DNA of 63,545 nt, counting the filler. It is 6 parts of 6 records of this genome, joined end to end, with 100 filler letters (N's around TTAATTAATTAA, not from the genome) between each part and the next. Parts side by side here need not be neighbours in the genome. Positions count along the whole stretch, not along the records: positions 1 to 21,989 come from SRR31156797_10057; 5 more parts are not named here. One strand, written 5' to 3'. Below are positions 1 through 38,106 of this stretch, one piece after another; the first letter of the stretch is position 1, and the number at the start of each line of letters is the position of its first letter. A program made the position numbers and the translations under genes. Below the pieces are notes generated by a model, which saw nothing but the letters and a program-made list of their open reading frames with translations, was not told the origin of the DNA and did no database searches.

Positions 1-447
1 GCTAAGACGCCCCGTCACCCTTCTGATTCGATGCCATGTTATCACGCTCATCAATCACCACTTGGCTAAAACCTGTAAGCATATAGATGAAGAGAACCTT
101 GCATGGAAGAGAGGAGGGTTGATCAGAGCCATGTCTACCAAAAATGGAAATCTTGCACCGGTAAAAGAAAAAACTAGAGCATTACTTTACGCAGCAGCCT
201 GCCATAGAAAAGTTCTGGTTATTTAGGTATGAACTTGCGGGGTTATCTTACGGGATCAGGATTAGGAATCCTGCAACTTTATTACAAAAACAAATAATTA
301 CAGGCAATAGTCGTAATTATGGGCGCAACCTAATTTAGCCCCTAATATTACCTGTTTTAAAAAAATTGCGGCGACAATCAAAGATTGAGCTCAAAAGCAC
401 TTGATGAAATGATCACCTGGTCTTTTAAGAAAATTGACTAAGAAGAT

Positions 448-483
448 ACCTGAACCCCATATACGGGAAGGAGGGGTTCAGGT
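448..483 (-). terminator. Inverted repeat / probable terminator after the last fez-like gene
   Basis: ACCTGAACCCC...GGGGTTCAGGT, 11-bp stem just downstream of the stop at 497; weak U-tract. Confidence 0.55.
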
Positions 484-496
484 AAATGGTGACAGA

Positions 497-823
497 CTAC
501 TCCCCTGCCTCGGCCTGTTTTTCCGCTACAGCTTCAGCCTTTGCATCTTCGAGTTTTTCCTTCATTTCCTCAATTCCGCACTGGGCTGCGGCAGTGAGCT
601 TGGAAACTGTCTTAACCACACCTTTCTGCACGGACTCATTGGTCACCAGCAGGGTTACTGCCGCGCCTATCAGGGCACCTTTCCAGAACTGAGAATCCTG
701 AACATCCAGCCCCAGAACAGAAGTTGGTGTGGTTGCTGCCGGGTAAACTGGTTGAACTTGTTGAACTGGCTGTTGATACACGGCCTGAGGTGGAACCTGC
801 TGCTGATAAATCTGATCTGCCAT
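497..823 (-). CDS. Small YtxH-like GxxxG membrane protein, ferrosome cluster accessory
   Basis: Q/P-rich N-terminus, FWKGALIGAAVTLLVT hydrophobic segment, coiled acidic C-terminus; AAGGAG RBS. Confidence 0.8.
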   Translation of the reverse strand: MADQIYQQQVPPQAVYQQPVQQVQPVYPAATTPTSVLGLDVQDSQFWKGALIGAAVTLLVTNESVQKGVVKTVSKLTAAAQCGIEEMKEKLEDAKAEAVAEKQAEAGE

Positions 824-888
824 GACGAAATAACTCCTTAAATTACCTAATATTAATGTTCAATGAAGAGAATAAGCCTGTTTTTGTC

Positions 889-1278
889 TCACTTACTCAG
901 GAGATAGCTGACGCCGGTAGCGGTGGCGATGGTCACGGCCAGACCTGCTACCCCACCCTTGGTCAGGCTTGACGCGGCTGCTGTTGCTGAAGCTGCTGCC
1001 GCCCCTCCAGCAGCTCCTTTGACCAGGCTGCCAATCACTGCTTGATTCATAGACATTTCGCCTGCCTGAACCTGGTGCAGACCGCTGCCCAGTGCTCCGG
1101 TACCAGCAACGACAAAGCCAAAAAAACCAGCGGCCAGGGTCGGTGAGGCCGTTTGCACAGTCGGTACTGCCGGCGGCTGATCAGGTAAAGCTATATATTG
1201 ATGCAGGGGTGCGGTCTGTGACAACGGGGTATGCATCGATTGTTCAACTGGTGCGGTATGTACAGTCCCTGTTTCCAT
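889..1278 (-). CDS. MamC-like Gly/Ala-rich membrane protein (fez cluster)
   Basis: GFFGFVVAGTGALGSGLHQVQAGEMSMNQAV..KGAAGG; paralog of 11308-11682. Confidence 0.75.
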   Translation of the reverse strand: METGTVHTAPVEQSMHTPLSQTAPLHQYIALPDQPPAVPTVQTASPTLAAGFFGFVVAGTGALGSGLHQVQAGEMSMNQAVIGSLVKGAAGGAAAASATAAASSLTKGGVAGLAVTIATATGVSYLLSK

Positions 1279-1286
1279 TATTTTTG

Positions 1287-1928
1287 TTACTCCTTTTCTG
1301 ATGGTGAGTTGTTAGATGTATTATCCGTCGGTTCAGGCTTGACAGTGGTTTTTCCGGTTTCCTTCAAACCTGGAAAAACACTGCCAAATGTTTTCCCCAT
1401 GGCCTCCCGCACAGGACCGCTGGTCAAGAGGATTGTGGCCGCGGCACCTACAAGAAGCCCTTTCCAGAGCTGATCATCCTGAGCGGTATTGGCATACAAG
1501 GTTTTGACCACATCGGACACAGTGGCATCCCCTTCCACAAAACTTTCAACCGATTGCATGATTACCCCATAGCGCTGCTGAGCAGCGGCCTGCTGAGCAG
1601 CGACCTGTTCCGGGGTCAACTGCGGCGACACATACATTACCGAAGGCTGCACCGGCTGCTGATACCCGACAAATACGCCCTGACCGCTCGCCGGATCAAT
1701 GGCATAACCCGGCGGAAGCTGCACCGGCTGTTGAAAGACAGGTTGTTGCGGAGGTGGTTGCTGTTGTGTGTCATGCCCTTCAACCGTCTGTTGACTGTTC
1801 ATCGCCTCTGCAGCCGGAGATTCCTCCAGCCCTGCCCTTGGTGCGGACACTTCCTCTTCAGCAGCCTGCGATTCTCCGCTTGTCTCAGCCTGATCCTGCA
1901 TCGACTCCTCCTTGTTCATCTCCTCCAT
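1287..1928 (-). CDS. YtxH-like GxxxG membrane protein with long Q/P/E-rich N-terminus (fez cluster)
   Basis: QLWKGLLVGAAATILLT matches the motif in 497-823; GGGAGG RBS. Confidence 0.8.
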   Translation of the reverse strand: MEEMNKEESMQDQAETSGESQAAEEEVSAPRAGLEESPAAEAMNSQQTVEGHDTQQQPPPQQPVFQQPVQLPPGYAIDPASGQGVFVGYQQPVQPSVMYVSPQLTPEQVAAQQAAAQQRYGVIMQSVESFVEGDATVSDVVKTLYANTAQDDQLWKGLLVGAAATILLTSGPVREAMGKTFGSVFPGLKETGKTTVKPEPTDNTSNNSPSEKE

Positions 1929-1941
1929 GTCCGACCTCCCT

Positions 1942-2283
1942 TTAAGTATCGCTGAGTATGGTAAGCAAACGCTCCTTCACACTCTCCCGGTGCAAAGGGT
2001 ATTCATTGAGCCTCCCTATATCTTCCCATAATGAAAACGGCAATATTTGAGAATTATACTCAATGACCACGGAAAAAGCCTTTTTGTTGACCCGATACGC
2101 ACCTATGCCAGGTATTTCAGCTATAATCCGCTCAATTTCTTCGCCATCCTTCTCGGCAAGTTTTTTCGCCCCGTTCCAACTAGCTTTGACTCGGATCCGA
2201 CCGCTTACGTGGTGGGCAATTTTCAGGTACCTGATATGATCTAAAAACGTATCAACTATTTCTTCATTCTGATAATGATTCAT
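1942..2283 (-). CDS. HMA-like (HxxGRxR-type) domain protein, FezC-like
   Basis: IAHHVSGRIRV...IPGIGAYRVNKKAFSVVIEY; probable start MNHYQ at 2283 (the ORF extends to 2313). Confidence 0.75.
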   Translation of the reverse strand: MNHYQNEEIVDTFLDHIRYLKIAHHVSGRIRVKASWNGAKKLAEKDGEEIERIIAEIPGIGAYRVNKKAFSVVIEYNSQILPFSLWEDIGRLNEYPLHRESVKERLLTILSDT

Positions 2284-2794
2284 TGTCTTCACAAGCCTCG
2301 GAAACAAATTCAAAATGCACTTTTATATCGACGATATCCCTTACAGTAAGAAAAAGCAGACGCGGCGCTTTAAGGCCATATGCCTTAAAAGACCATTTAA
2401 AGTCCAAATCAAAATTAATCACTTCTTTATCCCGTTGAACCCTGCAATTCAGGGGAAGCTGCCTTCGGATACCCCCTATTTCCAATATGCCGACCAACGT
2501 AACCTGATAGAGATCTTCTTCAATACGATGAAACCGACGACACTCTGTCATCACAAAAGTTGCTTGAGGGTAATCGACAAAGGAAAAATAATTCCTCATC
2601 GCTGTGGTCCGCTCCTGATCACCAGTTTCAAAAAGCATGGTTTCGGCGGCTGCTTCCAACCTGGTGATTGATAATCCTTTAAAATCAATTTCCATCTCAC
2701 TGTGCAACCCTTTGGTTGACCAGCCGACAAAAGTGTGCAGCGGAGCATGGGCGGTAAACTCCACCCGATTATTTGTTGAAAGAATATGGGTCAC
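2264..2794 (-). CDS. YceI-family lipid/polyisoprenoid-binding protein, no signal peptide
   Basis: VEFTAHAPLHTFVG...TGDQER...YPQATF...GILEIGGIRR...YGLKAP; GTG start with AAAGGAG RBS. Confidence 0.8.
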   Translation of the reverse strand: MTHILSTNNRVEFTAHAPLHTFVGWSTKGLHSEMEIDFKGLSITRLEAAAETMLFETGDQERTTAMRNYFSFVDYPQATFVMTECRRFHRIEEDLYQVTLVGILEIGGIRRQLPLNCRVQRDKEVINFDLDFKWSFKAYGLKAPRLLFLTVRDIVDIKVHFEFVSEACEDNESLSE

Positions 2795-2979
2795 TACTTC
2801 TGTTTCTCCTTTAGTTTATACACTTGTTTACCAAACGACTGCGGTGAGAGCTCCCTGACGGCAGCAGACACCCGGATTCCTCAGGAATGGGGTGAACTTT
2901 ACTTAGGCGTTTCAAATTATCTTGCAAGCAACGAACACTTAGCTAATAATTTTAAATAGTTACAAGGTCTGCCCAATGT

Positions 2980-3020
2980 TGTAACTCATTTTCACTCTCA
3001 ATTGAAAGTACTTTTTCAAT
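2980..3020 (-). promoter_or_regulatory. Candidate Fur-type boxes / internal promoter upstream of yceI-like gene
   Basis: TGTAACTCATTTTCA (2980-2994) has 2 mismatches to the delta-proteobacterial Fur consensus TGAAAATNATTTTCA; adjacent palindrome ATTGAAA-N6-TTTCAAT (3001-3020). Confidence 0.45.
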
Positions 3021-3073
3021 ACAGCTCCTTCCGCATACTTTGCATCACTCTTCGCCTGTTTACCAGCGAATCA

Positions 3074-5275
3074 CTACTTTAAGGTACAGACTTTGGGGAC
3101 TGTGCTTTTATATGACAACATGGCAGCCCCGTTGCTTACAGCGGCAACCGTGATCAGGTTATGCAGCAAAGCTCCACCAATAGGAGAAACAATTCCTGCC
3201 AACATGCATCCCAAAGCCAGGGAATTGAGGCCGATGGCCAGTAAGTGATTAACCTGGATAACCCGCACAGCATGCTGCCCCGTTGAAAAAACAGCTACCA
3301 ACTGGTGCGCATGGCCATCCTGAAGTACTATATCCGCATACTCCACGGCAACATCAGCTCCTCCCCTCCCAACAGACAAACTCAAATCGGCTGCCGCAAA
3401 CGCCGGAGTATCGTTAATGCCATCACCGAACATGGCCACCACGTCTTCCGGATGCTGTTTTTTCCACCTGCTTATCCACTCTGCTTTATTCTCTGGACTT
3501 TGTTCACATAAAATCTCATCAAACTGCATCTGTTCCCGGATACCCATTACCCCGGACTCCCCATCCCCCGTCAGAAGTACCACCCTTTTAATCCCGATCG
3601 CCTTAAGCTGGTCTACCAAGGTATCCATATTCCTTTTAATGATGCTGCCAGTCTCAATGATACCGACCAGGATTCCGTTAACAGCGATATAAAGGTTGCC
3701 CATTCCATGGGAACAGGGTTGCTCACCAGCATGCAGCGCCATATCCACCTGTACCCGGTGCTCCTCAAGCAACTGTTTGTTGCCGACAAGAACCTGAGAT
3801 GTACCAACTGCAGCCTCAATACCCCTGCCGGGAATCATTTGAGCCTCTTCGCAGCAAAGACGGTTGATTCCCAAAGCCTTTGCTTCACTGATCACAGCCC
3901 TGCCCAATGGGTGTTGACAGCTCTTCTGCACGCTGGCGGCAAACTGCAGGAGTTCTTCTTGCGAATAATTGTCGTCAAGGACCTTTATGGCTCTTACCTC
4001 TGCCACAGGGTCGGTGATAGTCCCGGTCTTATCAACAACCAGCACATTCACCTTGCCGGCAATCTCAACATATCGACCGCCTTTAATAAATATTCCGGAG
4101 ATTGCAGCATTGCTCATGGCAGCACTGACAGTAACAGAGGTGGATAATCGCAGCGCACAGGGACAGGTTATAATCAGCACTGTCATGGCCATCACCGGAT
4201 TACCTGTCAGAAGAAGAGTGGCCCCTGCCAGCGACAATGAAAAAGGTACCAGCTTCCTGGAAATATTCTGGCTGGTTCGCTGCAATTCGCCCATGTCCTG
4301 CTCTGCGTTTTCAATCAGCTTCAGTATTGCTGCCAGACGTGTCGACTCTCCGGTGTGAGTGACCCTGAGCTGTACATCCCCCTCTTCAAGAAATGTTCCG
4401 GTAAAAAGAGTATTCCCCTCCTGTTTTACGACAGGAAGTTCTTCCCCTGTCAAAATAGATTCGTTGATGATTGCCCGACCATGAATCACAGTCCCGTCAA
4501 CCGGCACACTGTTGCCTGTACGGAGGGTTATAATATCCCCTGGGACCAGATCAGTCGAATCCACCTCTATCTCAACACCATCGCGCACAAGCCAGACAGA
4601 GCTGAGCTTGCCGGTAAGCATCTCCCTGACAGCCCGCCTTGTTTTTCCCTGGATTCGGGCTTCGAGCCAATTACTCAGGTTAAACAACCAGAATACAGTG
4701 AGCGCAGCCACCCCATTGCCCATGGCAATGGTAACATACAGCATCCCGATGGATATCAGCCCCATGTCGGGCTGACCTGTTTTCTTCAATTTTTCCACAG
4801 CCTGCCGCTGAATCGGCAGAGAAAAATAAATTGCAAGCAGGGATGGCAGGCTTATAATCGGCGTTGTTGTTGTGGTGGTGCTGAACAGCACAGCGCGCCC
4901 AAATCTTTTAATTGCCAGATAACAGAGATACAGCCCGGTAAGGGCAAGGGCAGTGCCCGAAACATGATTTCGACAAACCCTCTTCCCTTTGTTCCTCTCA
5001 CAACAGGACTTTTTTACCCCAAGGCTGAGGTCACTGTTTCCGCCCTGCTTCTCCTCCAGAACCGCGTAAACCTCCTCACAGATAAAAGCGAGAGGTAAAG
5101 GTCCGGCGACATGTTCCACGATAACAGACCCGCTCGTGCTCCTGACGAGTACAGCATCAGCCCCCTTGGCCTCCTGCAACCTGAGCTGAATTTGACGACA
5201 GACAGCTCCCTGCCCTTTAAGAATAGGGAAACAGACCCTGGTTCTATACGATTTACGATGCTTAACTCGGTACAT
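3074..5275 (-). CDS. Heavy-metal P1B-type ATPase (CPC, TM6 HN)
   Basis: LTGE, ITCPCALRL, DKTGT, QHP, GDGINDTP, LLHNLIT. Confidence 0.9.
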   Translation of the reverse strand: MYRVKHRKSYRTRVCFPILKGQGAVCRQIQLRLQEAKGADAVLVRSTSGSVIVEHVAGPLPLAFICEEVYAVLEEKQGGNSDLSLGVKKSCCERNKGKRVCRNHVSGTALALTGLYLCYLAIKRFGRAVLFSTTTTTTPIISLPSLLAIYFSLPIQRQAVEKLKKTGQPDMGLISIGMLYVTIAMGNGVAALTVFWLFNLSNWLEARIQGKTRRAVREMLTGKLSSVWLVRDGVEIEVDSTDLVPGDIITLRTGNSVPVDGTVIHGRAIINESILTGEELPVVKQEGNTLFTGTFLEEGDVQLRVTHTGESTRLAAILKLIENAEQDMGELQRTSQNISRKLVPFSLSLAGATLLLTGNPVMAMTVLIITCPCALRLSTSVTVSAAMSNAAISGIFIKGGRYVEIAGKVNVLVVDKTGTITDPVAEVRAIKVLDDNYSQEELLQFAASVQKSCQHPLGRAVISEAKALGINRLCCEEAQMIPGRGIEAAVGTSQVLVGNKQLLEEHRVQVDMALHAGEQPCSHGMGNLYIAVNGILVGIIETGSIIKRNMDTLVDQLKAIGIKRVVLLTGDGESGVMGIREQMQFDEILCEQSPENKAEWISRWKKQHPEDVVAMFGDGINDTPAFAAADLSLSVGRGGADVAVEYADIVLQDGHAHQLVAVFSTGQHAVRVIQVNHLLAIGLNSLALGCMLAGIVSPIGGALLHNLITVAAVSNGAAMLSYKSTVPKVCTLK

Positions 5276-5412
5276 AGATTCCAGACAGCAATAAAGATAG
5301 ATAAAAGACTACAAAAGATGGAGCCACATAGACTGCCCTTTGGTGAACATTCTTCGCTATGTACAAATGGCCACAATAATCACGAGAACATCCTCGCCTT
5401 TTTCCGCACTCC

Positions 5413-7737
5413 TCATGTTAACATTTGTTTACATTGCTCGGTCCTGTTGGAACATCCTGCCCCCTTACTTCTGCAGCTTCGAGCACAACTGCTACACCTG
5501 TCCATTGGCTCCACCGGCGGTTCCCAGCTCAGCAATCGCCCTGAATTAATCAGTATACCGCCAGTATGAAAGACATGAATCATTCCTGCCATAATCGGCG
5601 ACAGAATTCCCAGCATACCGAGCGCTGCCCCAACCAGGTCTGTGGATACGGCAAAATAGTGATTCTGATCAATAACCTCCATGGTTCTGTGGCTCAGGTT
5701 CCTCACTTTCATCAACCCTTCCAGGTTAGAATCAGCCAGGGCAATATCCGCCGCTTCCATGGATACTTCAGCACCGCCTGCCCCCATTGCGATCCCAACA
5801 TCAGCGCGCGCCAGAGCCAGGGCATCATTAACACCGTCCCCAACCATAACTACGGGGTTGGTCTGTTTTAATTCGTCCACACGTATCGCCTTTTCTTCAG
5901 GAAGAAGCGAAGCCCGGCAGTCGTCAAAAGGAAATACATCCATCATTGACCTGGCCACATCGTCATGATCCCCTGTCACAAGATGCAGCCCCTTAACACC
6001 GTCTCCACGAAGACAATGGAGAACCCGTACCGTTTCCGGCCGTACCGGATTAGCAACCCCTATCATTCCCTGCGCCCTTCCATTTTTAGCCACATAGACC
6101 ACAGTGTTGCCGGAATGCTTCAGATTGGTTGCCTTCTTCTCAAACCAGGTGGTATCGATTTGGTGTTCATCCATAAACTGACGATTACCAACTATAACTA
6201 CTGCATCGCCGCCGATGGTACAGAGCACACCACGGCCAGCCTTGAACTCGCACACCGCGTGGGGGTCGGGAGAGAGGTTTCGCGCATCGGCTTCAGCTAA
6301 AATCGCTTTTGCCATGGGATGCTGATTATGTGACTCCGCTGTTGCGGCCATGGTTAGGATGGTATCGGCAGTCAGGTTAGGCGTTCTGCCGGTTATGGAA
6401 ATAATTTCAGGCAGTTCCGCAGTCAGGGTACCGGTTTTATCCAGGCAGTAAATATCCGCCTTCCCCACGGTTTCAAGGTAAAGTCCCCCTTTAATCAATA
6501 TCTGGTGTTTTGCCGCATTGGTTACCGCTGCAGTAACGGCGGAGGAGGCGGCAAGGACAGTGGCACAAGGGCACGACATCACCAGCATCACAGTCAGGGC
6601 CCTCATGGGATCCAGGGTGAAAAGAAAGGTCAGGGCTGTAGCTGCAAGCCCTATTTTCATCAGCCGGGATGCAAGCTGATCGGCCTTCTGTTCCACTGGT
6701 GCTTTATTTTGCAGGGAATCTTCCACCATTTTCATAATATGGGCAAGATACGTATCCTCACCGGTACGCTCAGTATCAATAAAAAGTATCCCCTGGCTGA
6801 CAATGGTACCGGCATGAACGCTGTCCCCCATGCCACGTAAAATGGTCTCAGCACTACCATTGATGGACGATTCATCAACATCGGCTTCACCTTCCTTTAC
6901 CCTTCCATCAACCGGAATCTTTTCGCCGGTGTGCACCACCACTACATCACCTGGCTGTATATCGGCAACCGGTGTTTCCACCTCCATCCCATCAATCAGG
7001 ATAAAGGCATTTGCAGGAGCGACTTCAAGAATATCACGAATGGCCTGGCGAGATCGCTGGGCAACATACTCCTCGGTGAGCTCGGCGACATTATAGATCC
7101 AGATTATCTGCAATGCGGAAAAGGCCTGCCCCATGGCAATGGTGGCAATGGTACCGGCTGCAAGAAATGGTTTAACCGTCAATTTCTTTTTCTCTGCTGT
7201 ATCCTTTGCAGCCTCAGCAAGCAGCGGAACAGCACCGGCCATCGCAGCAATACCGATTAAACTCAGCGGTGTTTGCACCAGGGGCAACCTGAAAATCCAG
7301 ATCCTGGCGGCTGCATAGACCATCATTCCAGTCAACCAGAAAACCCTTCTCACCTTTTTCGAGAAAGATTCCCCGGAGTCTGCATCACAGACTTCGCAAT
7401 AATTCTGAAAACCTGGAAGTTTTTCTTCAGGTTCTGTAAAAGCAACGGGGTGCCGGAGCTGTTCAATTATTTCAGCCAGCAACAAGCGAAGATGTGTTTT
7501 TTCCCCATCAAAAATAATAATAACAGATCCTGTCACAGGACGGGTTTCAACCTGGCTCACTCCTGATACACGCAGCAACCGCTCCCGCATCCAGCCTGAG
7601 GCAGCATCCTTGCGCCGCAAATTTCGCACGCTAACACGTATACGGCCGGCAATGGACTGCTTCACCTGTATGCCATTTTTTTTCAACGTGGACTTTTTTA
7701 TATAATCCGTACTCCCAACCGGGACGATAACGTTCAT
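5413..7737 (-). CDS. Heavy-metal P1B-type ATPase (CPC), FezH-like, with degenerate TGE motif and Cys-rich tail
   Basis: N-terminal GRIR, SSINGSAE, MSCPCA, DKTGT, QHP, GDGVND, HVFHT, C-terminal CSSCARSC. Confidence 0.9.
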   Translation of the reverse strand: MNVIVPVGSTDYIKKSTLKKNGIQVKQSIAGRIRVSVRNLRRKDAASGWMRERLLRVSGVSQVETRPVTGSVIIIFDGEKTHLRLLLAEIIEQLRHPVAFTEPEEKLPGFQNYCEVCDADSGESFSKKVRRVFWLTGMMVYAAARIWIFRLPLVQTPLSLIGIAAMAGAVPLLAEAAKDTAEKKKLTVKPFLAAGTIATIAMGQAFSALQIIWIYNVAELTEEYVAQRSRQAIRDILEVAPANAFILIDGMEVETPVADIQPGDVVVVHTGEKIPVDGRVKEGEADVDESSINGSAETILRGMGDSVHAGTIVSQGILFIDTERTGEDTYLAHIMKMVEDSLQNKAPVEQKADQLASRLMKIGLAATALTFLFTLDPMRALTVMLVMSCPCATVLAASSAVTAAVTNAAKHQILIKGGLYLETVGKADIYCLDKTGTLTAELPEIISITGRTPNLTADTILTMAATAESHNQHPMAKAILAEADARNLSPDPHAVCEFKAGRGVLCTIGGDAVVIVGNRQFMDEHQIDTTWFEKKATNLKHSGNTVVYVAKNGRAQGMIGVANPVRPETVRVLHCLRGDGVKGLHLVTGDHDDVARSMMDVFPFDDCRASLLPEEKAIRVDELKQTNPVVMVGDGVNDALALARADVGIAMGAGGAEVSMEAADIALADSNLEGLMKVRNLSHRTMEVIDQNHYFAVSTDLVGAALGMLGILSPIMAGMIHVFHTGGILINSGRLLSWEPPVEPMDRCSSCARSCRSKGAGCSNRTEQCKQMLT

Positions 7738-7802
7738 TATAGTTTACCTTGTCATTGGAATATCACGTGAATCACAATAGATAGCTTTCTGTCTTAGGGC
7801 CT

Positions 7803-7817
7803 TGCAATAATATTGCA
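7803..7817. promoter_or_regulatory. Perfect 7-1-7 palindrome in divergent intergenic region
   Basis: TGCAATA-A-TATTGCA between 7737(-) and 7954(+). Confidence 0.45.
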
Positions 7818-7850
7818 GACAACAAACAAAAACCTTGTATTTTTAAACAC

Positions 7851-7879
7851 TTGACAGCAATTCCCTCCTGTTATACTTT
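7851..7879 (+). promoter_or_regulatory. Sigma70-like promoter for the two small + strand genes
   Basis: TTGACA (7851) then TGnTATACT / TACTTT at 17-bp spacing. Confidence 0.5.
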
Positions 7880-7953
7880 AATTACTAAACTAGGAAATAA
7901 TAACGAATTTAACTCGTTTTAACTTTATCCATACATTATTACAGGAGACCACC

Positions 7954-8139
7954 ATGATTTACCTCCCCCTTACTACCACCCCTCTGGGATGGCTTATTCT
8001 GGGTGCCAGCGGCTATGCACTGTACAAAGCCGGTAAAAAGAAAGGAGAAGAAGAGTCCGCAGCATCCCAAATCACTGAGCTTCCTGCTCCGTCTGCAGCA
8101 GAGGCCTCCAGCAATGAAAATGAAAAAGGAGTAAAATAA
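7954..8139 (+). CDS. Small membrane protein (61 aa), fez cluster
   Basis: AGGAG RBS; LTTTPLGWLILGASGYALYKAGKK motif shared with the next gene. Confidence 0.75.
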   Translation: MIYLPLTTTPLGWLILGASGYALYKAGKKKGEEESAASQITELPAPSAAEASSNENEKGVK

Positions 8140-8420
8140 TGTCACATCCAGCACTCTTTATCCCATTATTAACCACAAACCCTGTTGGCTGGGCCGTTCT
8201 CGGCACCGCCGGGTATCTTGCCTACAAGTCCGGCAAAAAAGCCGGAAAAAAAAGCGACGAGCTGATTGAGAAGGAGCCCCTTCATGACCGTGTTGTAAAA
8301 GGGGCAATGAAGTCGGCCTACAAAACCAAGATGAAAGTGGACGAGTCCCTGAGCGGTACCAAAGAAAAGTATTCATCCATGTGGCGCGAAGCACAGGATG
8401 AGGTTGCAGACAAGGCATAA
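8139..8420 (+). CDS. Small membrane protein (93 aa), paralog of 7954-8139
   Basis: TAATG stop/start overlap, AAGGAG RBS; LTTNPVGWAVLGTAGYLAYKSGKK. Confidence 0.8.
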   Translation: MSHPALFIPLLTTNPVGWAVLGTAGYLAYKSGKKAGKKSDELIEKEPLHDRVVKGAMKSAYKTKMKVDESLSGTKEKYSSMWREAQDEVADKA

Positions 8421-8432
8421 ACTCAAGAGAAC

Positions 8433-9194
8433 TTATGCTCCGTTACCGGACGAGCCTTTCTTCTCATCGTCTGGTTCAGCACCTTTCACAATCACATTTT
8501 CGGCTTGGGCTGGGGTTAGGTATAAACGTAACCCCCCCGGGCTTGAAATAGTGATGGGTTCAACTCCGGGTTTATGAGCACCCTGGGCCTGTTCAATGGC
8601 TTCTAAGGTCAGAATTTCTCCCATACTGACTCCGTGCGTCAGCAGATGTTGCCGGGCTTTTTTGCCACCGATGATATCGAGTACCGTAAAAGGTTTGCCC
8701 TGTCTGGCAAAATAAAACTGCTGTTCGTCCTCTTCCTCACACTGACCCCAAATGCGTGCTGCTTCACTTTCCGAAAGCCGGGTTCGTTCTTTCCCATCCA
8801 GCAGTGTTATATAATCCATATGCGGCAACGCCCTGATAAATGAGACCTCACTCCCCTCAACAATCCCCATCTTGCCAAGGGCGTTAATGCAGCCCATGCC
8901 GCACGACATGGTCTCAACATGTCCTTTTTCCTTCCGTTTCATCTCCACCAACGGTTTACGCTCATCATTATCAAGATGAACGAATACCTTTATCCCGAGT
9001 CCGGCAGGGACGATTATATCTCCTTGCAAGCCATGTATACGAACAGGGTGATAATTAATCTCGCGATCATGGCGTGTCATACTGCTACCTACAAACAACC
9101 CAAGCCGCTGCAGCCATGAAGCAAGATTTGGCCGAGTGATCTTGAGAAGGATCAATTCTTTGTTAACCGGCGCATCAATAAGTGATGAATACAT
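8433..9194 (-). CDS. Multi-FeoA-domain protein (three FeoA-like repeats)
   Basis: Repeats LQRLGLFVGS / LGKMGIVEGS / LLTHGVSMGE resemble the FeoA LxxLGxxxG motif. Confidence 0.7.
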   Translation of the reverse strand: MYSSLIDAPVNKELILLKITRPNLASWLQRLGLFVGSSMTRHDREINYHPVRIHGLQGDIIVPAGLGIKVFVHLDNDERKPLVEMKRKEKGHVETMSCGMGCINALGKMGIVEGSEVSFIRALPHMDYITLLDGKERTRLSESEAARIWGQCEEEDEQQFYFARQGKPFTVLDIIGGKKARQHLLTHGVSMGEILTLEAIEQAQGAHKPGVEPITISSPGGLRLYLTPAQAENVIVKGAEPDDEKKGSSGNGA

Positions 9195-9211
9195 AGGCTC
9201 TATTGGTAAAA

Positions 9212-11311
9212 TTAATCGGCTCGCTGCTGGCTTTTACGACCACGGATTCCCGCGTATCCAAGAATGCCGATGGTACTAACGTTGTGGAGCAAAGCAGAGG
9301 TGACGGGTGCAATCAATCCCAGAGAGGCCAGGAGCAAAAAGGACGAATTCAGCCCGACAGCAGCAACAAAAGAATGCCTGATGGTCTGACGACTCCTTTG
9401 AGCAACAAGGCGACCATTCAAGAGACACTGCAGATCATCGCGCAATAAGATAACCTGGGCTGACTCCTTGGCAAGATCAGCACCTTCAGGAAGACAGATC
9501 CCAACATCAGCAGATACAAGGGCTGGAGCATCGTTGACCCCATCGCCAACAAAACCGAGCATGTGTCCTGCCTCCTGCAGTTCTTTGACGATACGGGCCT
9601 TATCCTCGGGCTTCAGTTCCCAGTGCACCTCATCTACTGCCGACAACTTGGCGGCAAGAGCCCTGGTGGTAAGCTCGGCATCCCCGGTGAGAATAACAAT
9701 CCGCTCAATTCCAGAGTCCTTCAACCCGGTCAGGACAGCCTCTGCCTCTGGCCGTAACTCATCGCGCAGCCCTATAACACCGGCTAACTTTTCTTTACAG
9801 GCGACATAAAGGACACTCTTCCCCTGCTCCTGTAGCTCGGATACGGCGGCATCCACCCCGTCACATTTAATGCCCTCATCATCTTCGATAAAATGACGAC
9901 TGCCTACCAGTACGTTTTTACCGTTAATATAAGCAGACACTCCGTGGGCCACAATAAAATCGACCTGGCTCGTTGGCGCCAGCTCAAGGCCTCTCTCATG
10001 TGCAGCGCTGACCACTGCCGATGCGACAGGATGTGAGTAATGTTCCTCCGCACTTGCGGCAAGCATCAAAAGTCTCTCCCCGTCATAGCCGTTAACACCG
10101 TGGATATCGGTCACTTCAAGCTGCCCCTTGGTAAGGGTACCGGTTTTATCAAAAACCAGGGTGTCGACCCGGGCAAGACCATCCAGAGCCTGAGAACCTT
10201 TCAACAACACACCTTGGCCGGCAGCGGCATACATCGCTACCCGAACAGCAACTGGATTAGCCAGTTTAATGGCGCAGGAATAGTCAACCGTTAAAACAGC
10301 AGCAGCCTTGTCAAGATCACGGGTGAGAGCAAGTAAACCAAGACCAAGGCCAAAGGTTACCGGTACCAGTTTATCTGCAAGCTCTTCACTTTCCTTTTGT
10401 GATTTAGACTCGTAGCGCAGGGAATTTTCCAGGAAACTGGAAATACGGGCCATAGAAGTCTCAGCACCGACCCGCAATGCCTCAAATACAATGCGCCCAT
10501 CCTCAACAACCGATCCGGAAAGCACTTCCTGCCCAGGTTCTGCATGGACAGGCACAGATTCGCCGGTTATAGAACTTGTATTGATCGATGCCTCTCCCTC
10601 TACAACAATGCCGTCAAGAGGGATCAATTCGCCAGGCCCACATATAACCTGGTCGCCAATGGATGCATCCGCAAGAGGAACCTCCAACTCCTGACCGTCC
10701 ACCTGAATCCAGATCATTTCCACCTGTGGTTTAAGCAGGCTTTTGAGTAGACCAGTGGTCCGATTCTCGCTAGCCTCTTCCAGGTATTCGCCAACACCAA
10801 GGAGAAAAACTATGGACGCAGCTGTAAAAAAATCGCCTCGCACCAAGCAGAAAAGGACAGCTGACCCATCAAGGACCTCTACCTTTATCCCTCTGGTCCA
10901 CAAGGTGGTCACTCCTTCAATGACCACAGAGGCACAAAAGGCTACGGCAAGCGGAGCAGCAACAAGAGGCGGCAGCACCAACAGGGAGAGGGCTATGCTC
11001 CCTTTTGCCACAAGACTCAGCACGGAATGGAATGTTTTTACCTGCCCGTTCCCGTTAAGGATATCTGTTGGGAGGTCAACCAGACAGGTAATAAGCGCAT
11101 CACGGGTACGGGTAAGCCCATCGTATTCCGCAGCAACCGACGCAGCACGTGTATTGACACGTACAGCAGACACCCCAGGTATATTTTCCATGATCGCTTC
11201 CAGATAGAAAGGATCAAGTTCCGGTCTTTTTATGACCCGGCTGCGCAGACGAATACGCTGTTCAAGCTCATGAACGATAGTCACAGAGAACCGGCGCTGT
11301 GTCGCTATCAT
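9212..11311 (-). CDS. fezB: P1B-6-type ATPase, ferrosome FezB-like
   Basis: N-terminal HELEQRIRLR, ITGES, TM4 DYSCAIKL (10271-10285), DKTGT, GDGVNDAP, TM6 LHNVST. Confidence 0.85.
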   Translation of the reverse strand: MIATQRRFSVTIVHELEQRIRLRSRVIKRPELDPFYLEAIMENIPGVSAVRVNTRAASVAAEYDGLTRTRDALITCLVDLPTDILNGNGQVKTFHSVLSLVAKGSIALSLLVLPPLVAAPLAVAFCASVVIEGVTTLWTRGIKVEVLDGSAVLFCLVRGDFFTAASIVFLLGVGEYLEEASENRTTGLLKSLLKPQVEMIWIQVDGQELEVPLADASIGDQVICGPGELIPLDGIVVEGEASINTSSITGESVPVHAEPGQEVLSGSVVEDGRIVFEALRVGAETSMARISSFLENSLRYESKSQKESEELADKLVPVTFGLGLGLLALTRDLDKAAAVLTVDYSCAIKLANPVAVRVAMYAAAGQGVLLKGSQALDGLARVDTLVFDKTGTLTKGQLEVTDIHGVNGYDGERLLMLAASAEEHYSHPVASAVVSAAHERGLELAPTSQVDFIVAHGVSAYINGKNVLVGSRHFIEDDEGIKCDGVDAAVSELQEQGKSVLYVACKEKLAGVIGLRDELRPEAEAVLTGLKDSGIERIVILTGDAELTTRALAAKLSAVDEVHWELKPEDKARIVKELQEAGHMLGFVGDGVNDAPALVSADVGICLPEGADLAKESAQVILLRDDLQCLLNGRLVAQRSRQTIRHSFVAAVGLNSSFLLLASLGLIAPVTSALLHNVSTIGILGYAGIRGRKSQQRAD

Positions 11312-11682
11312 CCTTCCTGATCCCCGATCTCGCAGAGTTCTTTTTTGCTCTTCTTCATCCCGGTGTCAATCATGTAGGCGGCTGCAGCAAGTACACCGGA
11401 AGCTACCAGCACCTGGGTGGTTGTAGTTCGTGGAAGACGGGAAAGAATAAGTGAGGCAGCTGCGCCCTTGGCAACCCCGTTTATCACGGCCTGCGGCAGA
11501 CTCATTGAGCCGTTTCTGACATCAACAATATTAGATCCGATAGAAGCCGCGCTTGCTACAGTAAGAGTGGCAGCAATTGCACCCACAGAAGCAACCGATG
11601 GCGCTGCTACAACTGGCTGTTGCAAAAGCTGTGTTGGATAGGCCACCTGTCCAATGTTGGTTTGTGATTCTCCATACAACAT
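11308..11682 (-). CDS. MamC-like Gly/Ala-rich membrane protein (fez cluster)
   Basis: IGSNIVDVRNGSMSLPQAVINGVAKGAAA; GAGGAGG RBS; ATGA overlap with fezB. Confidence 0.75.
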   Translation of the reverse strand: MLYGESQTNIGQVAYPTQLLQQPVVAAPSVASVGAIAATLTVASAASIGSNIVDVRNGSMSLPQAVINGVAKGAAASLILSRLPRTTTTQVLVASGVLAAAAYMIDTGMKKSKKELCEIGDQEG

Positions 11683-11701
11683 ATGAACCTCCTCGCCTCC
11701 T

Positions 11702-12172
11702 TTAATCCTCTAGTTTCTCTAGGTATTCCTGAAAGCAATGCATACCTTTGGTCCCACAAACTTCATGGCTCCCTTTTTCTTTCAGGTAACGGGTGTAAAG
11801 AACCATACGCTTGATTATGTTACCAGAAGCAACATGCTCCATTTTACAAGCGCCCTCATCAGCAACACTCGGGGCAACCCCGAGCACCTCAACAAAAAAA
11901 TCACGCAAGGTTTCATGCCGATACAATATATCTTCGGCAACCTCCTTGCCTTTGGCAGTAAGCCTGATGGGTTCATAGGGGGTGTAGTTCACCATGCCGC
12001 GCTCGTTCAACTGCTGCAGGGCCTCGGTTACCGAGGGACCAGAGACATCCAAACGCTCCATTATGCTTTTGGATCGAGCTTCCCCACTATCCTTACTGAC
12101 CACAAGAATGGCTTCAAGGTAATCCTCAAGGCTTGCACTCAGATTTTTCCCTTTTCCATTTGCTCCAGCCAT
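11702..12172 (-). CDS. DtxR/MntR-family metal-dependent repressor
   Basis: SLEDYLEAI, VSGPSVT, LTAKG, RHETLRDF, EGACKMEH. Confidence 0.92.
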   Translation of the reverse strand: MAGANGKGKNLSASLEDYLEAILVVSKDSGEARSKSIMERLDVSGPSVTEALQQLNERGMVNYTPYEPIRLTAKGKEVAEDILYRHETLRDFFVEVLGVAPSVADEGACKMEHVASGNIIKRMVLYTRYLKEKGSHEVCGTKGMHCFQEYLEKLED

Positions 12173-12338
12173 TTTTATTCTCGTCTATTTGATAATCACC
12201 TGACGCATTTTGTCAGCCTAAGTTCTTTATGCTTCTGACATGACAAAGAAAATCTCTCCTTCTTCTTAATGTCATCAGACATAGCGTTCTTTACCTTTTT
12301 CAACCGGTCAAAACATCCTGCAAAAAAAATGAGCCTCG

Positions 12339-12367
12339 AAATTAGCCAACCCTAATTTCAAAGTCAA
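12339..12367 (-). promoter_or_regulatory. Promoter with overlapping DtxR-type palindromic operator
   Basis: Minus strand TTGACT-17-TAATTT; palindrome AAATTAG-N6-CTAATTT at 12339-12358 covers the spacer and -10. Confidence 0.65.
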
Positions 12368-12526
12368 GAACTATTTTAGCCTTGTCAAAGTTTATGCACC
12401 TGGCCACACATATTTAAGACGCCAACTACAATTACGCACACCAAAACTTATTAAGCCAGACCTGGCAAACCCGAACCTGCTGACATATTTTTTTGAAAAT
12501 CGAACCGCCATTGAGGCCGAAAAACC

Positions 12527-13027
12527 TTATTCCTTTAGCCTATTTTCAGAATTACACGTATTGCGGGAACAACTCATCTCCGAGCATCCTTCTTTACAAT
12601 AATAACCAAAACCTGATTCCCAGCTTATCCCTCCTTTTGGACAAGTTTCTACATATTCAGAATACTTTACCAGGCGATCTACAATAGTCTTAGGTACAGA
12701 GTGTTCCATTTTACAGGCTGCCTTGTCGGCGAGATCCGAATCCACACCCAATACATTGACCATAAATCGCTCAAGAGCCCTATGCCTGCGAACTATCTCC
12801 TTGGCAACGTGGACCCCTGTTTTTGTAAGAGTTATCAGATCATAAGGAGCATAATTAACCAGTCCCATTTTGCTCAGTGTCCTAAGCGCAATAGTGACAG
12901 AAGAAGCACGCACTCCAAGTTGCTGGGCGATATCCTTTGCCCGTGCAGCTACCTTCTCCTCGACGATAGTGTAAATTGCCTCTAGATAATCTTCCTGACT
13001 TGCTGTGAGCTGTTGATTGTTTTCCAT
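12527..13027 (-). CDS. DtxR/MntR-family repressor with Cys-rich C-terminus
   Basis: SQEDYLEAI, RASSVT, RRHRAL, AACKMEH; tail CPKGG..YCKEGCSEMSCSRNTC. Confidence 0.92.
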   Translation of the reverse strand: MENNQQLTASQEDYLEAIYTIVEEKVAARAKDIAQQLGVRASSVTIALRTLSKMGLVNYAPYDLITLTKTGVHVAKEIVRRHRALERFMVNVLGVDSDLADKAACKMEHSVPKTIVDRLVKYSEYVETCPKGGISWESGFGYYCKEGCSEMSCSRNTCNSENRLKE

Positions 13028-13270
13028 AAACCTTTTCCCTAAGATATTTAACCTACCTCCTTCTAAAAAAATTACGATGCAGGTAAAAAGTCAACTATAA
13101 TATTTCCAGCAAATAGACCACTCTTGCTAAGCTACAGATATTTCGTATTAATTAAACCATAATACTTTCCTCAATAAAAAAAAAAGATGCATTCAACCAA
13201 CGGAACTCGACCCAAAAGTGAAATCTCAACCAAAAAAATGAACTTTTTAAGGGGGCTTTAACTTTTACAC

Positions 13271-13368
13271 TTGCAACTTTATTAGAAACATCTTACTTTC
13301 ATCATTGATCGATTGATCCTCCTTAGAAAATGGTCCCTGCTGCATCCCACACAGCAGGGGCCATCTTT
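13271..13368 (+). ncRNA. Candidate small RNA (promoter, anti-SD motif, terminator)
   Basis: TTGCAA-17-TACTTT, then GATCCTCCTTAG, then a 13-bp hairpin at 13330-13364 followed by CTTT; no ORF on this strand. Confidence 0.45.
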
Positions 13369-13781
13369 ACCGGCCAAAGTCCCTCCCCTCCCCTTCTTTT
13401 GAGCGCCATCCACGGATACACTCTCGTCAAACAACACCATGTAAAAATACAAAAAAAATAAGTATCCCCAGAGAAAAAGGAAAATTTGACTTTTGAGTCA
13501 AGGCAGTCCGTTATAGTAAAAGAATACGTCGGACTCTAGAGGCTTATTATCCAGATTTTTGAAATAAGAGGAGTTGTACAGAGTTAAAAAAAGGGGGCGA
13601 ACTCGTTTAAATGAAATAACCGGGAAACCATTTCGACTGTCCTCTATTGAGGGGTGAAGAAAACAATTACGTGGGACAGCTTGTTACTTTATCCTAACTG
13701 TTCAAACTGCCCTGAGCGGGGTATCAGCAGAAAAGTTATAAATCAAGTTTTTGATACTTACTAAAGGGTTACAACGTATCT

Positions 13782-14132
13782 TTATATATTTAGTTTAGAA
13801 GCAATTTCAGGATGAACAAAAGAGGCAACCGTAACTGCAACATTCTTCTGGTCACATATGGACGATGAATCAAGGGGCTGCGCGAACGCTCTACTCGTCT
13901 CTGTAACAGCATTTTTTCCCTTGCAGCACGTAGACTGACATGTATTTTGTTGGCGGCACCTGGTAAGGCCAATACATAACCAGCAAAGTACATTATATAA
14001 CTTTTCCTGCTCATCTGTGGAAAGTTTTTTGTAGCTGAGCAAGTCATCAAGAAATGGAGCCTGACGGCACCCTTCTCCCCTTGCAATTGCTTGACCACAA
14101 GATATATTCTGCTTCATCTTCTTTCTTTCCAT
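13782..14132 (-). CDS. Hypothetical Cys-rich protein
   Basis: 116-aa ORF with a possible AAAGG RBS; no family recognised. Confidence 0.35.
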   Translation of the reverse strand: MERKKMKQNISCGQAIARGEGCRQAPFLDDLLSYKKLSTDEQEKLYNVLCWLCIGLTRCRQQNTCQSTCCKGKNAVTETSRAFAQPLDSSSICDQKNVAVTVASFVHPEIASKLNI

Positions 14133-14427
14133 CGCAACGCCTTTCTAATCATTTTTACATTACCAAGCCTGTTAGTCGAACATACTCGCCTAAAGACAAA
14201 CAACACTGCAAACATTACAGATTGAACTCTCAGTATCTACCAATAAGTATGAAAACAATAGAGGTAAAACTCTGTGAGATCGTACTATGGGTCATAAGAT
14301 ACGCTAGCAAACAATCGAACGCAACCTTTTTATTAGCCTGCCCAATAAATATTCATACTGACTAACAAAATAAGAGAACGGTAAGGAGGCCGATACACTA
14401 TCCCTTACTGACTTTCGTCATGATTGT

Positions 14428-16695: not shown

Positions 16696-17229
16696 TTAAC
16701 CGTCATTACGAACGCATCGCACAAGGAATTTTTGCTCTGCATCATATGCACTGTTGTCGCCCACAAAAAAACCTACCGTCATATAATGCCCCGCATCCCC
16801 CCCATGGGGTGTGACTGTCCAGTAGTTACCTTCTTCACATGCAAACACACCGTTAATAATATTCTGACTTCGCCCATAATCGGCGATCCCCATCAATTCG
16901 TCATGATCTGGTATTCGCCAATCAGAAAATCCGGCTAATCCCAGTGATTCACAATAATTTTCACCCTCCGGATACGTTCCCACTTGAGCTTCTTCAACAT
17001 TTTCCCACCGGAGATTTGTCCTCAAGTCTGTGACCGACTGATCACCATTGTCACGGTAAACAGCATCCCCGGCAGCAGCAGACGTCGGACAAGATACCGT
17101 CTCGCCATAGTCATTATAGCAAACCGGTGTGCTGGCCGCAGGTCCACTCTCCGCGTAAGCAGGGCAACCAGCAACAAGTACAATCACAAGAGTAAACGTT
17201 GGACAGAGGTAACTCTTTTTAGGCTTCAT
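16696..17229 (-). CDS. Secreted DUF1566 (Lcl C-terminal) domain protein
   Basis: Signal peptide; DNGDQSVTDLRTNLRW, YCESLGLAGFSDWRIP, YWT, VRCVR; AAAGGAG RBS before 17229. Confidence 0.85.
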   Translation of the reverse strand: MKPKKSYLCPTFTLVIVLVAGCPAYAESGPAASTPVCYNDYGETVSCPTSAAAGDAVYRDNGDQSVTDLRTNLRWENVEEAQVGTYPEGENYCESLGLAGFSDWRIPDHDELMGIADYGRSQNIINGVFACEEGNYWTVTPHGGDAGHYMTVGFFVGDNSAYDAEQKFLVRCVRNDG

Positions 17230-17360
17230 GTTGCTCCTTTGATAAGTGATTATTGCGAAAACCACCGACAGGTAAAATCAGTTCGAAAAGCGGCCGCAAC
17301 ACAACACCATACCAAGGAGAATCCTCCAGGGTATGGCGTTTGCGGTTCTCAATGTAGAAA

Positions 17361-18857: not shown

Positions 18858-18917
18858 ATGATTCTCTCTTTAATCATTTTTTACCCACACGATGTTGATA
18901 TACGCCCTTTTGCGCCA

Positions 18918-20090: not shown

Positions 20091-20377
20091 CTTTACTCCT
20101 GTCTGTCTTTTTTGTTTTACCCCAGGGGGGCACCCCCACATCTCGTATACTGAAATATCACCTTTAAAGTTACGGCTCAGATGGCTACATATTGCCCCTG
20201 CCCAGGCGAGCAGGGCAACTCTTCCGGCTTTTCACGTAAGCCCCAAAAAACAGCGCCTTAGGGAAAAATTTACCCCTTACCCACACCCCAATGCCATCAG
20301 GTCATGGAGTAGATATAAGCAAGGAAAACCGTAGCGTTACGATCCCTATGGGTAGTTACACTAATATGTATGCTCAC

Positions 20378-34752: not shown

Positions 34753-35215
34753 ATCTCTTCTCTCTCTATTTTGATTAGAATGTTCAACAGATGTTTACAC
34801 CCTTGTTTCAGTTCTTATTTATCCCGTCATATAAAAAACGTCCGATCCTACCCTACAATTACCCGCATTGATAAAGCTATATAGGTTGCAATTGGATCGT
34901 CGCTTGATCTGGCATCTACTCTTTCCGAAAGAAAATCCTCTTGAACCAGGAGCATCCGGTATTTTATGGGCCGATACCGCGACAGCTCCTTCGCTGGCTT
35001 GATACTGTATTTTTAAATCAAAGATAGTACCCAGGGACGCGAAGAATCGCTTTGGAGCGCGGGACGACATATACGCCACTTGTAAGAGAAGAGTGGCATT
35101 GGAAGGTGGGAGAAACGTGAAGATAAGGGGTGTTTAGCCGATTGAGCCGCTCTTCAAAGTAAGCAGATTGCACACACCCTTTTTTGCATATTTTTCATAT
35201 TAAACGCACAAAATA

Positions 35216-35252: not shown

Positions 35253-35260
35253 ATATTTAA

Positions 35261-38084: not shown

Positions 38085-38106
38085 AAAATAATAGTTAGTT
38101 AGAAAT

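Follow-up and report, generated by a model that had tools for sequence, protein, structure and literature searches.

Does a run of 14 open reading frames (ORFs), with three P1B ATPases set among small hydrophobic proteins, encode an iron-storage organelle, and if so, is its architecture new? The question is raised by positions 497-13027 of a window of 63,545 nt, by which we mean the whole stretch of DNA analyzed here, six parts joined end to end, of which positions 1 to 21,989 come from SRR31156797_10057. The initial annotation had seen at this place an expanded ferrosome (fez)-like cluster and had listed three P1B ATPases, six small ORFs, an HMA-like protein, a FeoA-domain protein, a YceI-like protein and two DtxR repressors, all of which are present where it had placed them (Table 1). 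From homology and gene neighborhood, we consider it likely that the cluster is a ferrosome-type iron-storage system in a large form specific to the Desulfobulbales and Desulfobacterales.

The pump encoded at 9212-11311 carries the argument. FezB is defined, in the preprint text of Grant & Komeili (10.1101/2020.01.10.902569), by D[Y/F]SCA, HNxxT and an N-terminal R-rich motif, and the window protein has all three, with DYSCA at residue 343, HNVST at residue 676 and RIRLRSR at residues 19-25, as the initial annotation had recognized. It also contains the universal P-type motifs DKTGT, TGES and GDGVND, and its N-terminal domain is of the Pfam HMA_2 kind rather than a classical HMA, being R-rich without a CxxC as in FezB. 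The match to the heavy-metal P-type ATPase subfamily model TIGR01525 had an E value of 8e-143 (5e-134 to 8e-143 across the three window ATPases), and the nearest public relatives, at 75-76% identity, are from Desulfobulbaceae.

We computed a tree of 83 P-type ATPases (quick IQ-TREE, LG+G4, KdpB as root), consisting of the 3 window proteins, 77 ORFs (at least 500 aa, E <= 1e-30) from 59 related loci found by scanning one genome per species, and CopA, ZntA and KdpB of E. coli K-12. The pump at 9212-11311 fell within a clade of 61 rows with SH-aLRT support of 100, in which 60 rows combine D[YF][SA]C[AV] with HNxxT and the remaining one is a truncated DFSCA sequence; E. coli CopA and ZntA lie outside. 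Two further clades, each again with SH-aLRT 100, contained the other window ATPases: 12 rows with SCPC and H[IV]xHT for 5413-7737, and 7 rows with TCPC and HNL[IV]T for 3074-5275. The three clades grouped together apart from CopA and ZntA (SH-aLRT 97), a grouping to be read with the thin sampling of outgroups and a long-branch warning in mind. FezB-type and SCPC-type homologues are also named from Magnetomoraceae genomes. Some relatives have two FezB-type pumps (L014 and L011): the L014 locus, from a Desulfovibrio sp. metagenome-assembled genome, has the order FezB - FeoA - second FezB (44.5% identity) with an SCPC-type pump before them, which echoes the two FezB copies mentioned for D. alaskensis in the preprint text (10.1101/2020.01.10.902569).

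The neighboring genes point in the same direction. The proteins of 497-823 (GALIG) and 1287-1928 (GLLVG) each have the hydrophobic GxxxG region typical of fez-cluster neighbors, and the motif is invariant across the 26 sequences of their alignment (A3), neighbors of proteobacterial fezB included; in the same alignment, 6 of 26 sequences weakly match DUF5132 and 5 of 26 YtxH. The protein of 1287-1928 has ten orthologues at the same position within L001-L012 and a more distant one in L014. Homologues of 497-823 immediately precede fezB in proteobacterial loci, among them those of Azospirillum, Azotobacter and Thauera (e.g., 9606-9968 of L016), and this protein is a canonical FezA-type component. 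The predicted HxxGRxR HMA-like protein was recovered at 1942-2313 as HVSGRIR, an R-rich neighbor of the FezC/FezD type, with an HMA_2 match (E 2.6e-5) below the Pfam cut-off and a true start that is probably the ATG at 2283. Its homologues occur in 33 loci, covering Desulfobulbales loci as well as proteobacterial fez clusters, and the N-termini of FezB match it too; by these similarities it looks like a soluble, chaperone-like Fez component. As homologues of both the GxxxG protein of 497-823 and the HMA protein flank fezB in the Azospirillum, Azotobacter and Thauera loci, which are of the short operon type known from S. putrefaciens and R. palustris, we read the cluster as ferrosome-type, and the earlier label of a fez-like cluster is thus supported by the three FezB motifs, the motif-bearing clade and the GxxxG and R-rich HMA neighbors.

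The two other P1B ATPases differ from FezB and from each other in their membrane motifs (SCPC/HVFHT and TCPC/HNLIT). The protein of 5413-7737 has SCPCA in transmembrane segment 4 (TM4), HVFHT aligned with the HNxxT position of FezB, GRIRVSVR near the N-terminus in an HMA_2 domain and a Cys-rich C-terminal tail. Across its family, GR[MIL]R[VI] is kept within the domain at the N-terminus, and the Cys-rich tail is present in Desulfobulbales; the relatives reach 77% identity and come mostly from Desulfobulbales and Desulfobacterales but also from Magnetomoraceae and Thermodesulfovibrionales. The protein of 3074-5275 has TCPCA in TM4, HNLIT in TM6 and an N-terminal YRTRV, conserved as [YF]RTR in a family of 76 protein clusters at E <= 1.6e-157 that is followed by a gap to 9e-92; the best identity is 57%, and its named members come almost entirely from Desulfobulbales or Desulfobacterales. 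The R-rich N-terminal motif is kept in all three ATPase types of the cluster. According to the preprint text, larger fez clusters include a second R-rich P1B ATPase, FezH, and the R-rich motif is stated for both FezB and FezH (10.1101/2020.01.10.902569). Both extra pumps fit this verbal description, which, and not a FezH sequence, was the basis of the comparison; we regard 5413-7737 as a candidate FezH. Within the part of the P1B-6/P1B6 literature that we examined, the name FezH was met in the ferrosome sense only in the preprint.

The third pump brings in a different reading of the cluster. In the available text of Boudehen et al. (10.1101/2021.10.01.462712), CtpC of M. tuberculosis is "P1B6-like", with CPC in TM4 and HN in TM6, a combination that 3074-5275 shares and 5413-7737, having CPC but HVFHT, does not. 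The three ATPases could then form an efflux platform in the cytoplasmic membrane that exports Fe, Mn, Zn or Co when in excess, with no organelle involved, the small proteins acting like the mycobacterial PacL in stabilizing and clustering CtpC and the DtxR/MntR regulators switching the genes on at metal excess, which overall we find unlikely. In addition to the CtpC-like motifs and the R-rich N-terminal domain of the third ATPase, the label "manganese/zinc-transporting P-type ATPase C" given by JGI to members of the TCPC family would fit such a platform, as would the best matches of the regulators, NCBIfam MntR models, though these fell below the cut-off. According to the same text, the genes of PacL-like DUF6110 proteins typically accompany those of P1B6 ATPases (10.1101/2021.10.01.462712), and 497-823, with its membrane segment, Glu/Ala-rich tail and weak YtxH and DUF5132 matches, resembles the small single-pass proteins encoded beside CtpC. 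Family scans of the cluster proteins, however, gave no DUF6110 or DUF1490 match, the small proteins lack the C-terminal His/Asp metal-binding motif of PacL1, and the third ATPase gene, unlike ctpC, lies inside a FezB cluster; a simple efflux pump would hardly call for nine to ten conserved accessory genes. A FezB-type pump is moreover required for ferrosomes in Desulfovibrio magneticus, and fez clusters are required in Shewanella putrefaciens and Rhodopseudomonas palustris, where the short operon type was shown by experiment to make ferrosomes; the S. putrefaciens operon alone sufficed in E. coli (all from the preprint text, 10.1101/2020.01.10.902569). For C. difficile, the available part of the article reports ferrosome iron as ferrous phosphate in a membrane compartment that depends on fezB (PMC13307979). 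In both the ferrosome and the efflux reading the pumps work out of the cytosol, and the two do not wholly exclude each other.

The cluster consists of 12 minus-strand and 2 plus-strand ORFs, and while the expected count of 14 genes is right, the single-strand operon implied with it is not, as 7954-8139 and 8139-8420 are read on the plus strand. Between feoA and the second ATPase, ORFs are found on both strands. The plus frames are 50-77% identical in 11 related loci (54-77% for 7954-8139 and 50-71% for 8139-8420) and gave 20 and 21 blastp matches, whereas the overlapping minus ORFs are only 37-43% identical, with 1 and 4 matches, and the minus ORF 8158-8418 occurs in 4-5 loci. Because the plus frames are better conserved and present in more loci, we place the pair on the plus strand, where it diverges from the second ATPase and converges with feoA. 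Between the two genes there is an overlap of 1 nt, and AGGAG is found 8 nt before the ATG of 7954-8139. Their products share PxGWxxLGxxGYxxYKxGKK (alignment A2), with P10, G12, G17, G20, Y24 and G27 invariant; in 8139-8420 the N-terminal hydrophobic PxGWxxLGxxGY segment is followed by a Lys-rich stretch and a charged tail. Neither matches a Pfam or NCBIfam model. Altogether the six small hydrophobic proteins form three paralogous pairs (alignments A1-A3); the initial annotation's six small Gly-rich membrane proteins hold as a number, with two of them on the plus strand and an invariant GxxxG confined to the pair 497-823/1287-1928.

The genes appear to form three transcription units. On the minus strand, and preceded by a separately transcribed DtxR gene, unit 1 would consist of DtxR - small protein - fezB - feoA; unit 2 would be the divergent plus-strand pair; and unit 3, again on the minus strand, would run from ATPase 2 through ATPase 3, yceI and the HMA gene to three small genes. 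The stop of 11308-11682 overlaps the FezB start by 4 nt, and since other gaps are 8-19 nt, coupled expression within the units is suggested. Spacers of 137 and 279 nt separate 3074-5275, which directly follows the SCPC pump, from its neighbors; in the relatives this gene lies at the far end of the cluster, and its position in the window is a local rearrangement. The hairpin beyond the last gene, with a core stem of 10 bp (12 bp in the fold, ~447-484) followed by UAUCUUCUU, folds at -21.9 kcal/mol (z -4.8) with none of 200 shuffles equally stable, and is likely the end of the transcription unit.

The same gene content and order recur in related genomes, which argues against a chance arrangement. 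The twelve closest loci (L001-L010, L012 and L013; FezB identity 55-76%) all belong to Desulfobulbales, Desulfobacterales or unclassified Thermodesulfobacteriota, and 11 of them (L001-L010 and L012) carry most or all of the layout. The shared order is [DtxR] - two-helix protein - FezB - FeoA - (two plus-strand genes) - SCPC ATPase - YceI - HMA - GxxxG protein - two-helix protein - FezA-like protein - TCPC ATPase, with some members missing in some loci and several contigs ending inside the cluster; L011 has the FezB unit only. All three ATPases are present, the TCPC pump at the far end, in six loci (L003-L008), including those of the isolates Desulfobacter curvatus DSM 3379 and D. vibrioformis DSM 8776, while the TCPC pump is absent from L009 and L010 within the available sequence. 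The layout is therefore a lineage-typical form in public genomes, cultured strains among them, and not unique to the window. In the Desulfobacter loci L004, L005, L006 and L008, the divergent region between the plus-strand pair and the SCPC pump measures ~800-900 bp (about 13400-14300), compared with 216 bp in the window, and may hold further small ORFs.

These comparisons also bear on whether the locus is a composite, in which only unit 1, with its small protein, fezB and feoA, would be a ferrosome module and ATPases 2 and 3, yceI and their small genes a separate but co-regulated module for another metal. We rate this as rather unlikely. The separate transcription units with a divergent promoter region between them would suit it, and so would the different membrane metal-site motifs of the three pumps, the opposite order of the units in L010, the lone fezB unit of L011 and the mobility of the third ATPase, missing from two loci and moved within the window. 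Yet the canonical fez accessories, the GxxxG protein of 497-823 and the R-rich HMA protein, sit in unit 3 and not beside fezB, such that the units share ferrosome-type parts; the two-helix paralogues are split between units 1 and 3; and the units are adjacent in 11 of the 12 close loci. The position of the fez accessory genes and the split of the paralogues weaken the composite reading.

Of the soluble components, 8433-9194 matches Pfam FeoA (PF04023) over residues 81-149 with an E value of 3.8e-11 (43.3 bits against a cut-off of 23), and its gene follows fezB in 12 of the 14 closest loci, L013 being an exception. The protein had been described as a triple FeoA. One domain is thus confirmed by Pfam; segment scans of the two flanking FeoA-like repeats were not significant by sequence, and internal profile comparisons were weak (hhalign P 0.0015-0.03), but an AlphaFold2 model built from 14 sequences (pLDDT 84.9) repeats the same strand-helix-strand order three times, making three repeats plausible. 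A Foldseek search of the whole three-repeat model against the PDB gave no match at E <= 0.001, the non-significant top hits including FeoA and DtxR-family SH3-like domains. A Feo-type uptake system was considered and rejected, as Pfam scans of the window brought up no FeoB. The YceI-like protein of 2264-2794 is likewise a family member by Pfam (PF04264, E 4.1e-12, 47.2 bits, cut-off 23.7); it shows no hydrophobic signal segment at its N-terminus, and homologues occupy the same position in eight loci.

The Gly/Ala-rich two-helix pair 889-1278 and 11308-11682, which has a conserved loop (alignment A1), gave a further lead. Homologues of 11308-11682 are located directly upstream of fezB in ten loci, and 889-1278 matches the NCBIfam MamC model NF038051 at E 1.6e-4 with 22 bits, far below the curated cut-off of 100. 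Among the A1 members, 8 of 20 match MamC at E <= 0.01. A profile search with A1 against 1.84 billion representatives returned 96 proteins at E <= 0.001, of which 42 match MamC at E <= 0.001, the best with 67.6 bits (E 8.6e-19), and none reach the cut-off. MamC is the only family matched repeatedly by these relatives, single weak matches to two other models being found in P0328 and P0329, and one of the intermediates between the A1 family and MamC comes from a Magnetomoraceae genome. Size, the two hydrophobic helices with their conserved loop, an alignment over ~80 of 97 model positions and the graded intermediates are all MamC-like, which suggests a MamC-like superfamily with members in fez clusters, although the Gly/Ala-rich composition may inflate the scores. 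Judged by title and abstract, the papers found on ferrosome and MamC include none about a fez-MamC link.

That the cluster itself is related to magnetosome clusters is, by contrast, highly improbable. Beyond the weak MamC matches of 889-1278 and its relatives, the idea draws on the name "magnetosome protein MamC" that NCBI already gives to some A1 relatives, e.g., in Desulfuromonas thiophila, a species that is not known to be magnetotactic. Every score stays below the MamC cut-off, no magnetosome genes are nearby, and scanning the whole window with Pfam and the cluster with NCBIfam brought up no other magnetosome family; a magnetosome island was rejected for lack of mam gene families in these scans.

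Both putative regulators are DtxR-family members, as had been noted, with scores above the cut-offs for PF01325 and PF02742. For 12527-13027 the E values are 3.9e-19 (Fe_dep_repress) and 2.7e-22 (Fe_dep_repr_C), NCBIfam MntR and DtxR models match below their cut-offs, and orthologues 66-74% identical are found in L002, L003 and L007; for 11702-12172 the E values are 2.9e-15 and 4.2e-16, and orthologues 58-64% identical immediately precede the fezB unit in L001, L002 and L009. The two proteins share both Pfam domains with DtxR, IdeR and MntR but are short, lack the SH3-like third domain and have Cys-rich tails. A palindrome, ATTAGCCAACCCTAAT (ATTAG-N6-CTAAT), is located ~170-185 nt upstream of 11702-12172 between TTGACT (-35-like) and TAATTT (-10-like) hexamers, and the core TTAG-N6-CTAA recurs upstream of the SCPC ATPase in the Desulfobacter loci L004, L005, L006 and L008 and upstream of DtxR in L007 and L009. 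We consider it a candidate DtxR-type operator, with binding suggested by pattern and position; it overlaps a putative promoter and is shorter than the 19-bp IdeR box that it presumably resembles. In the divergent region 7738-7953, the perfect palindrome TGCAATAATATTGCA (7803-7817) adjoins the block TGTCAAGTGTTTAA..., and while the block is conserved in L001, L002, L007, L009 and L012, the palindrome is not, for which reason any role of the latter is conjecture. These short intergenic palindromes were missed by the inverted-repeat tool and found by a script. Rfam and tRNA scans of the window returned no family and no tRNA.

Set beside the reference systems, which are fezABC of D. magneticus, the six-gene operons of S. 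putrefaciens and R. palustris and fezAB of C. difficile, the window cluster has the same kind of P1B-6 ATPase with D[Y/F]SCA, HNxxT and R-rich motif, the GxxxG proteins, the R-rich HMA protein and FeoA, and it further agrees with known fez clusters in an extra P1B ATPase that is R-rich and differs in its membrane motifs, a nearby DtxR gene and an anaerobic host lineage. It differs in comprising 14 genes in three units, compared with the two to ten genes, with FeoA-domain proteins and often Fur or DtxR genes nearby, that the preprint text reports (10.1101/2020.01.10.902569), in having two extra ATPases of two distinct clades instead of one, and in the cytoplasmic YceI-like protein, the divergent plus-strand pair and the two-helix MamC-like pair. 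The suggestion of an undescribed architecture thus holds in part. The layout recurs in 11 related loci, and a second pump, a FeoA protein, R-rich and GxxxG proteins and a nearby DtxR are already described in the preprint text, but next to that text four parts appear to be new: the third pump of CtpC-like type, the YceI-like cytoplasmic protein, the plus-strand pair and the MamC-like pair. The preprint's text and legends mention no third CtpC-like ATPase, no YceI, no divergent pair and no MamC-like pair, although its figures or supplements may show such a layout (10.1101/2020.01.10.902569). In the part of the literature on Desulfobulbales and Desulfobacterales that we examined, the word ferrosome was not met. 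Judged by the present evidence, the cluster as such belongs to an already described system, as an expected member.

Several observations weigh against the ferrosome reading. The usual task of P1B ATPases is metal export across the cytoplasmic membrane, and a sequence alone cannot tell where a pump is located. No carrier of this exact layout has been shown to make ferrosomes or iron granules. The tree compares motif-bearing unnamed homologues, and none of its rows is a FezB or FezH validated by experiment. Ferritin-like proteins of the DUF4405 and DUF2202 kinds, which the preprint text counts among the conserved fez proteins (10.1101/2020.01.10.902569), were not found in the Pfam and NCBIfam scans. 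On the regulatory side, DtxR is adjacent in only 4 of the 12 close relatives (L001, L002, L007 and L009) and is ~7 kb away in L003, and no DtxR gene was found in the Desulfobacter, Desulfobacula and Desulfobulbus alkaliphilus loci examined. The operator pattern is not above chance in the window, ATTAG-N6-CTAAT giving a single match against 2.1 expected by chance at one mismatch, and consensus promoter and terminator scans of 1-14000 were at chance as well, with 13 against 16.1 and 17 against 14.9. Gene content, motifs, clade placement and conserved synteny are direct observations; the organelle, the metals carried, the localization of the proteins and the regulation we infer from homology.

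On that basis, a ferrosome-type cluster would work as follows. When iron returns after starvation, its products would form membrane-bounded compartments in the cytoplasm, and the FezB P1B-6 ATPase would move Fe(II) from the cytosol into their lumen, where it would precipitate with phosphate. The small hydrophobic proteins, i.e., the GxxxG, two-helix and plus-strand pairs, would shape or populate the organelle membrane or organize the pumps. The soluble R-rich HMA_2 protein would be a free copy of the pumps' N-terminal domain and, with the FeoA-like protein, may supply the pumps with metal or control their activity. The second and third ATPases, with the shared R-rich N-terminal domain and different membrane metal sites, may load a second cation or serve another metal pool, and the DtxR-family regulators may tie expression to Fe or Mn status via the TTAG-N6-CTAA operator overlapping the promoter. 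A compartment more elaborate than the ferrosomes known to date, in which the three pumps with their different metal sites load more than one cation and the two-helix proteins are true relatives of MamC, we regard as a long shot; if true, an older stock of iron-organelle membrane proteins would be common to ferrosomes and magnetosomes, and both would draw on it. The MamC likeness, if real, would tie together the two known bacterial iron organelles.

So far, work on ferrosomes has dealt only with species whose clusters are short, at two to six genes. A conserved version of 12-14 genes in widespread sulfate reducers of marine and fresh waters, among them cultured Desulfobacter and Desulfobulbus strains, offers tractable organisms in which to ask whether storage extends beyond iron, how the pumps are fed or organized, and whether control is by a DtxR-type regulator rather than Fur.

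Table 1. Features of the fez-like cluster, in order of decreasing position in the window
Feature	Position	Strand	Evidence
DtxR/MntR-family metalloregulator, 166 aa, Cys-rich C-terminal tail, own upstream intergenic region	12527-13027	-	
Candidate operator palindrome	12341-12356	.	
Second DtxR/MntR-family regulator, 156 aa, heads FezB transcription unit	11702-12172	-	
Two-helix Gly/Ala-rich small membrane protein, 124 aa, paralogue of 889-1278	11308-11682	-	
FezB-type P1B-6 ATPase, 699 aa	9212-11311	-	Motifs, TIGR01525, clade
FeoA-domain protein, 253 aa	8433-9194	-	Pfam
Small protein, 93 aa, convergent with FeoA gene	8139-8420	+	
Small protein, 61 aa, paralogue of 8139-8420	7954-8139	+	
Perfect 15-nt palindrome, divergent promoter region	7803-7817	.	
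Second P1B ATPase, 774 aa, SCPC type, FezH candidate	5413-7737	-	
Third P1B ATPase, 733 aa, TCPC type, CtpC-like ("P1B6-like")	3074-5275	-	
YceI-like protein, 176 aa	2264-2794	-	Pfam
Soluble HMA_2-like protein, R-rich HVSGRIR	1942-2313	-	Pfam below cut-off
Gln/Pro-rich protein, 213 aa, hydrophobic WKGLLVGAA (GxxxG) segment	1287-1928	-	
Two-helix Gly/Ala-rich membrane protein, 129 aa, weakly MamC-like	889-1278	-	
FezA-like small protein, 108 aa, FWKGALIGAA (GxxxG) and Glu/Ala-rich tail	497-823	-	
Hairpin 3' of last gene	449-482	-	RNA fold

Outside the cluster, a partial ORF on the plus strand (2-226), lying just past the terminal hairpin, is cut by the window's 5' end. On the other side, upstream of the cluster and on the same strand, positions 16696-21496 encode an Lcl_C-domain protein, a di-haem oxidoreductase (DHOR) and two imelysins (Peptidase_M75), a periplasmic set that we take to be linked to iron handling and that is not conserved beside fez in the relatives examined. 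The GC content is 46-51% over the fez cluster (1-13000) and 41-47% in the next 20 kb (12000-34000), and the cluster may have been acquired as a unit. Two genes appear split (33546-34600 and 27057-28090): a CHAD-domain protein is divided into two ORFs covering model positions 5-90 and 105-209, and the N-terminal part of a Bmp/PnrA-like binding protein is in an ORF of its own. Frameshifts, pseudogenes or sequencing errors account for these splits. A strong compositional mosaic is seen at 34000-46000 and 50000-54000. A block of 38-42% GC contains a protein with a T9SS sorting domain (Por_Secre_tail), KduI, DUF4861, a short-chain dehydrogenase and a LacI regulator, a gene set that we presume to be associated with Bacteroidota, and a block of 61-62% GC contains NMT1/ABC-transporter genes; these blocks could be horizontally acquired islands or an assembly chimera.

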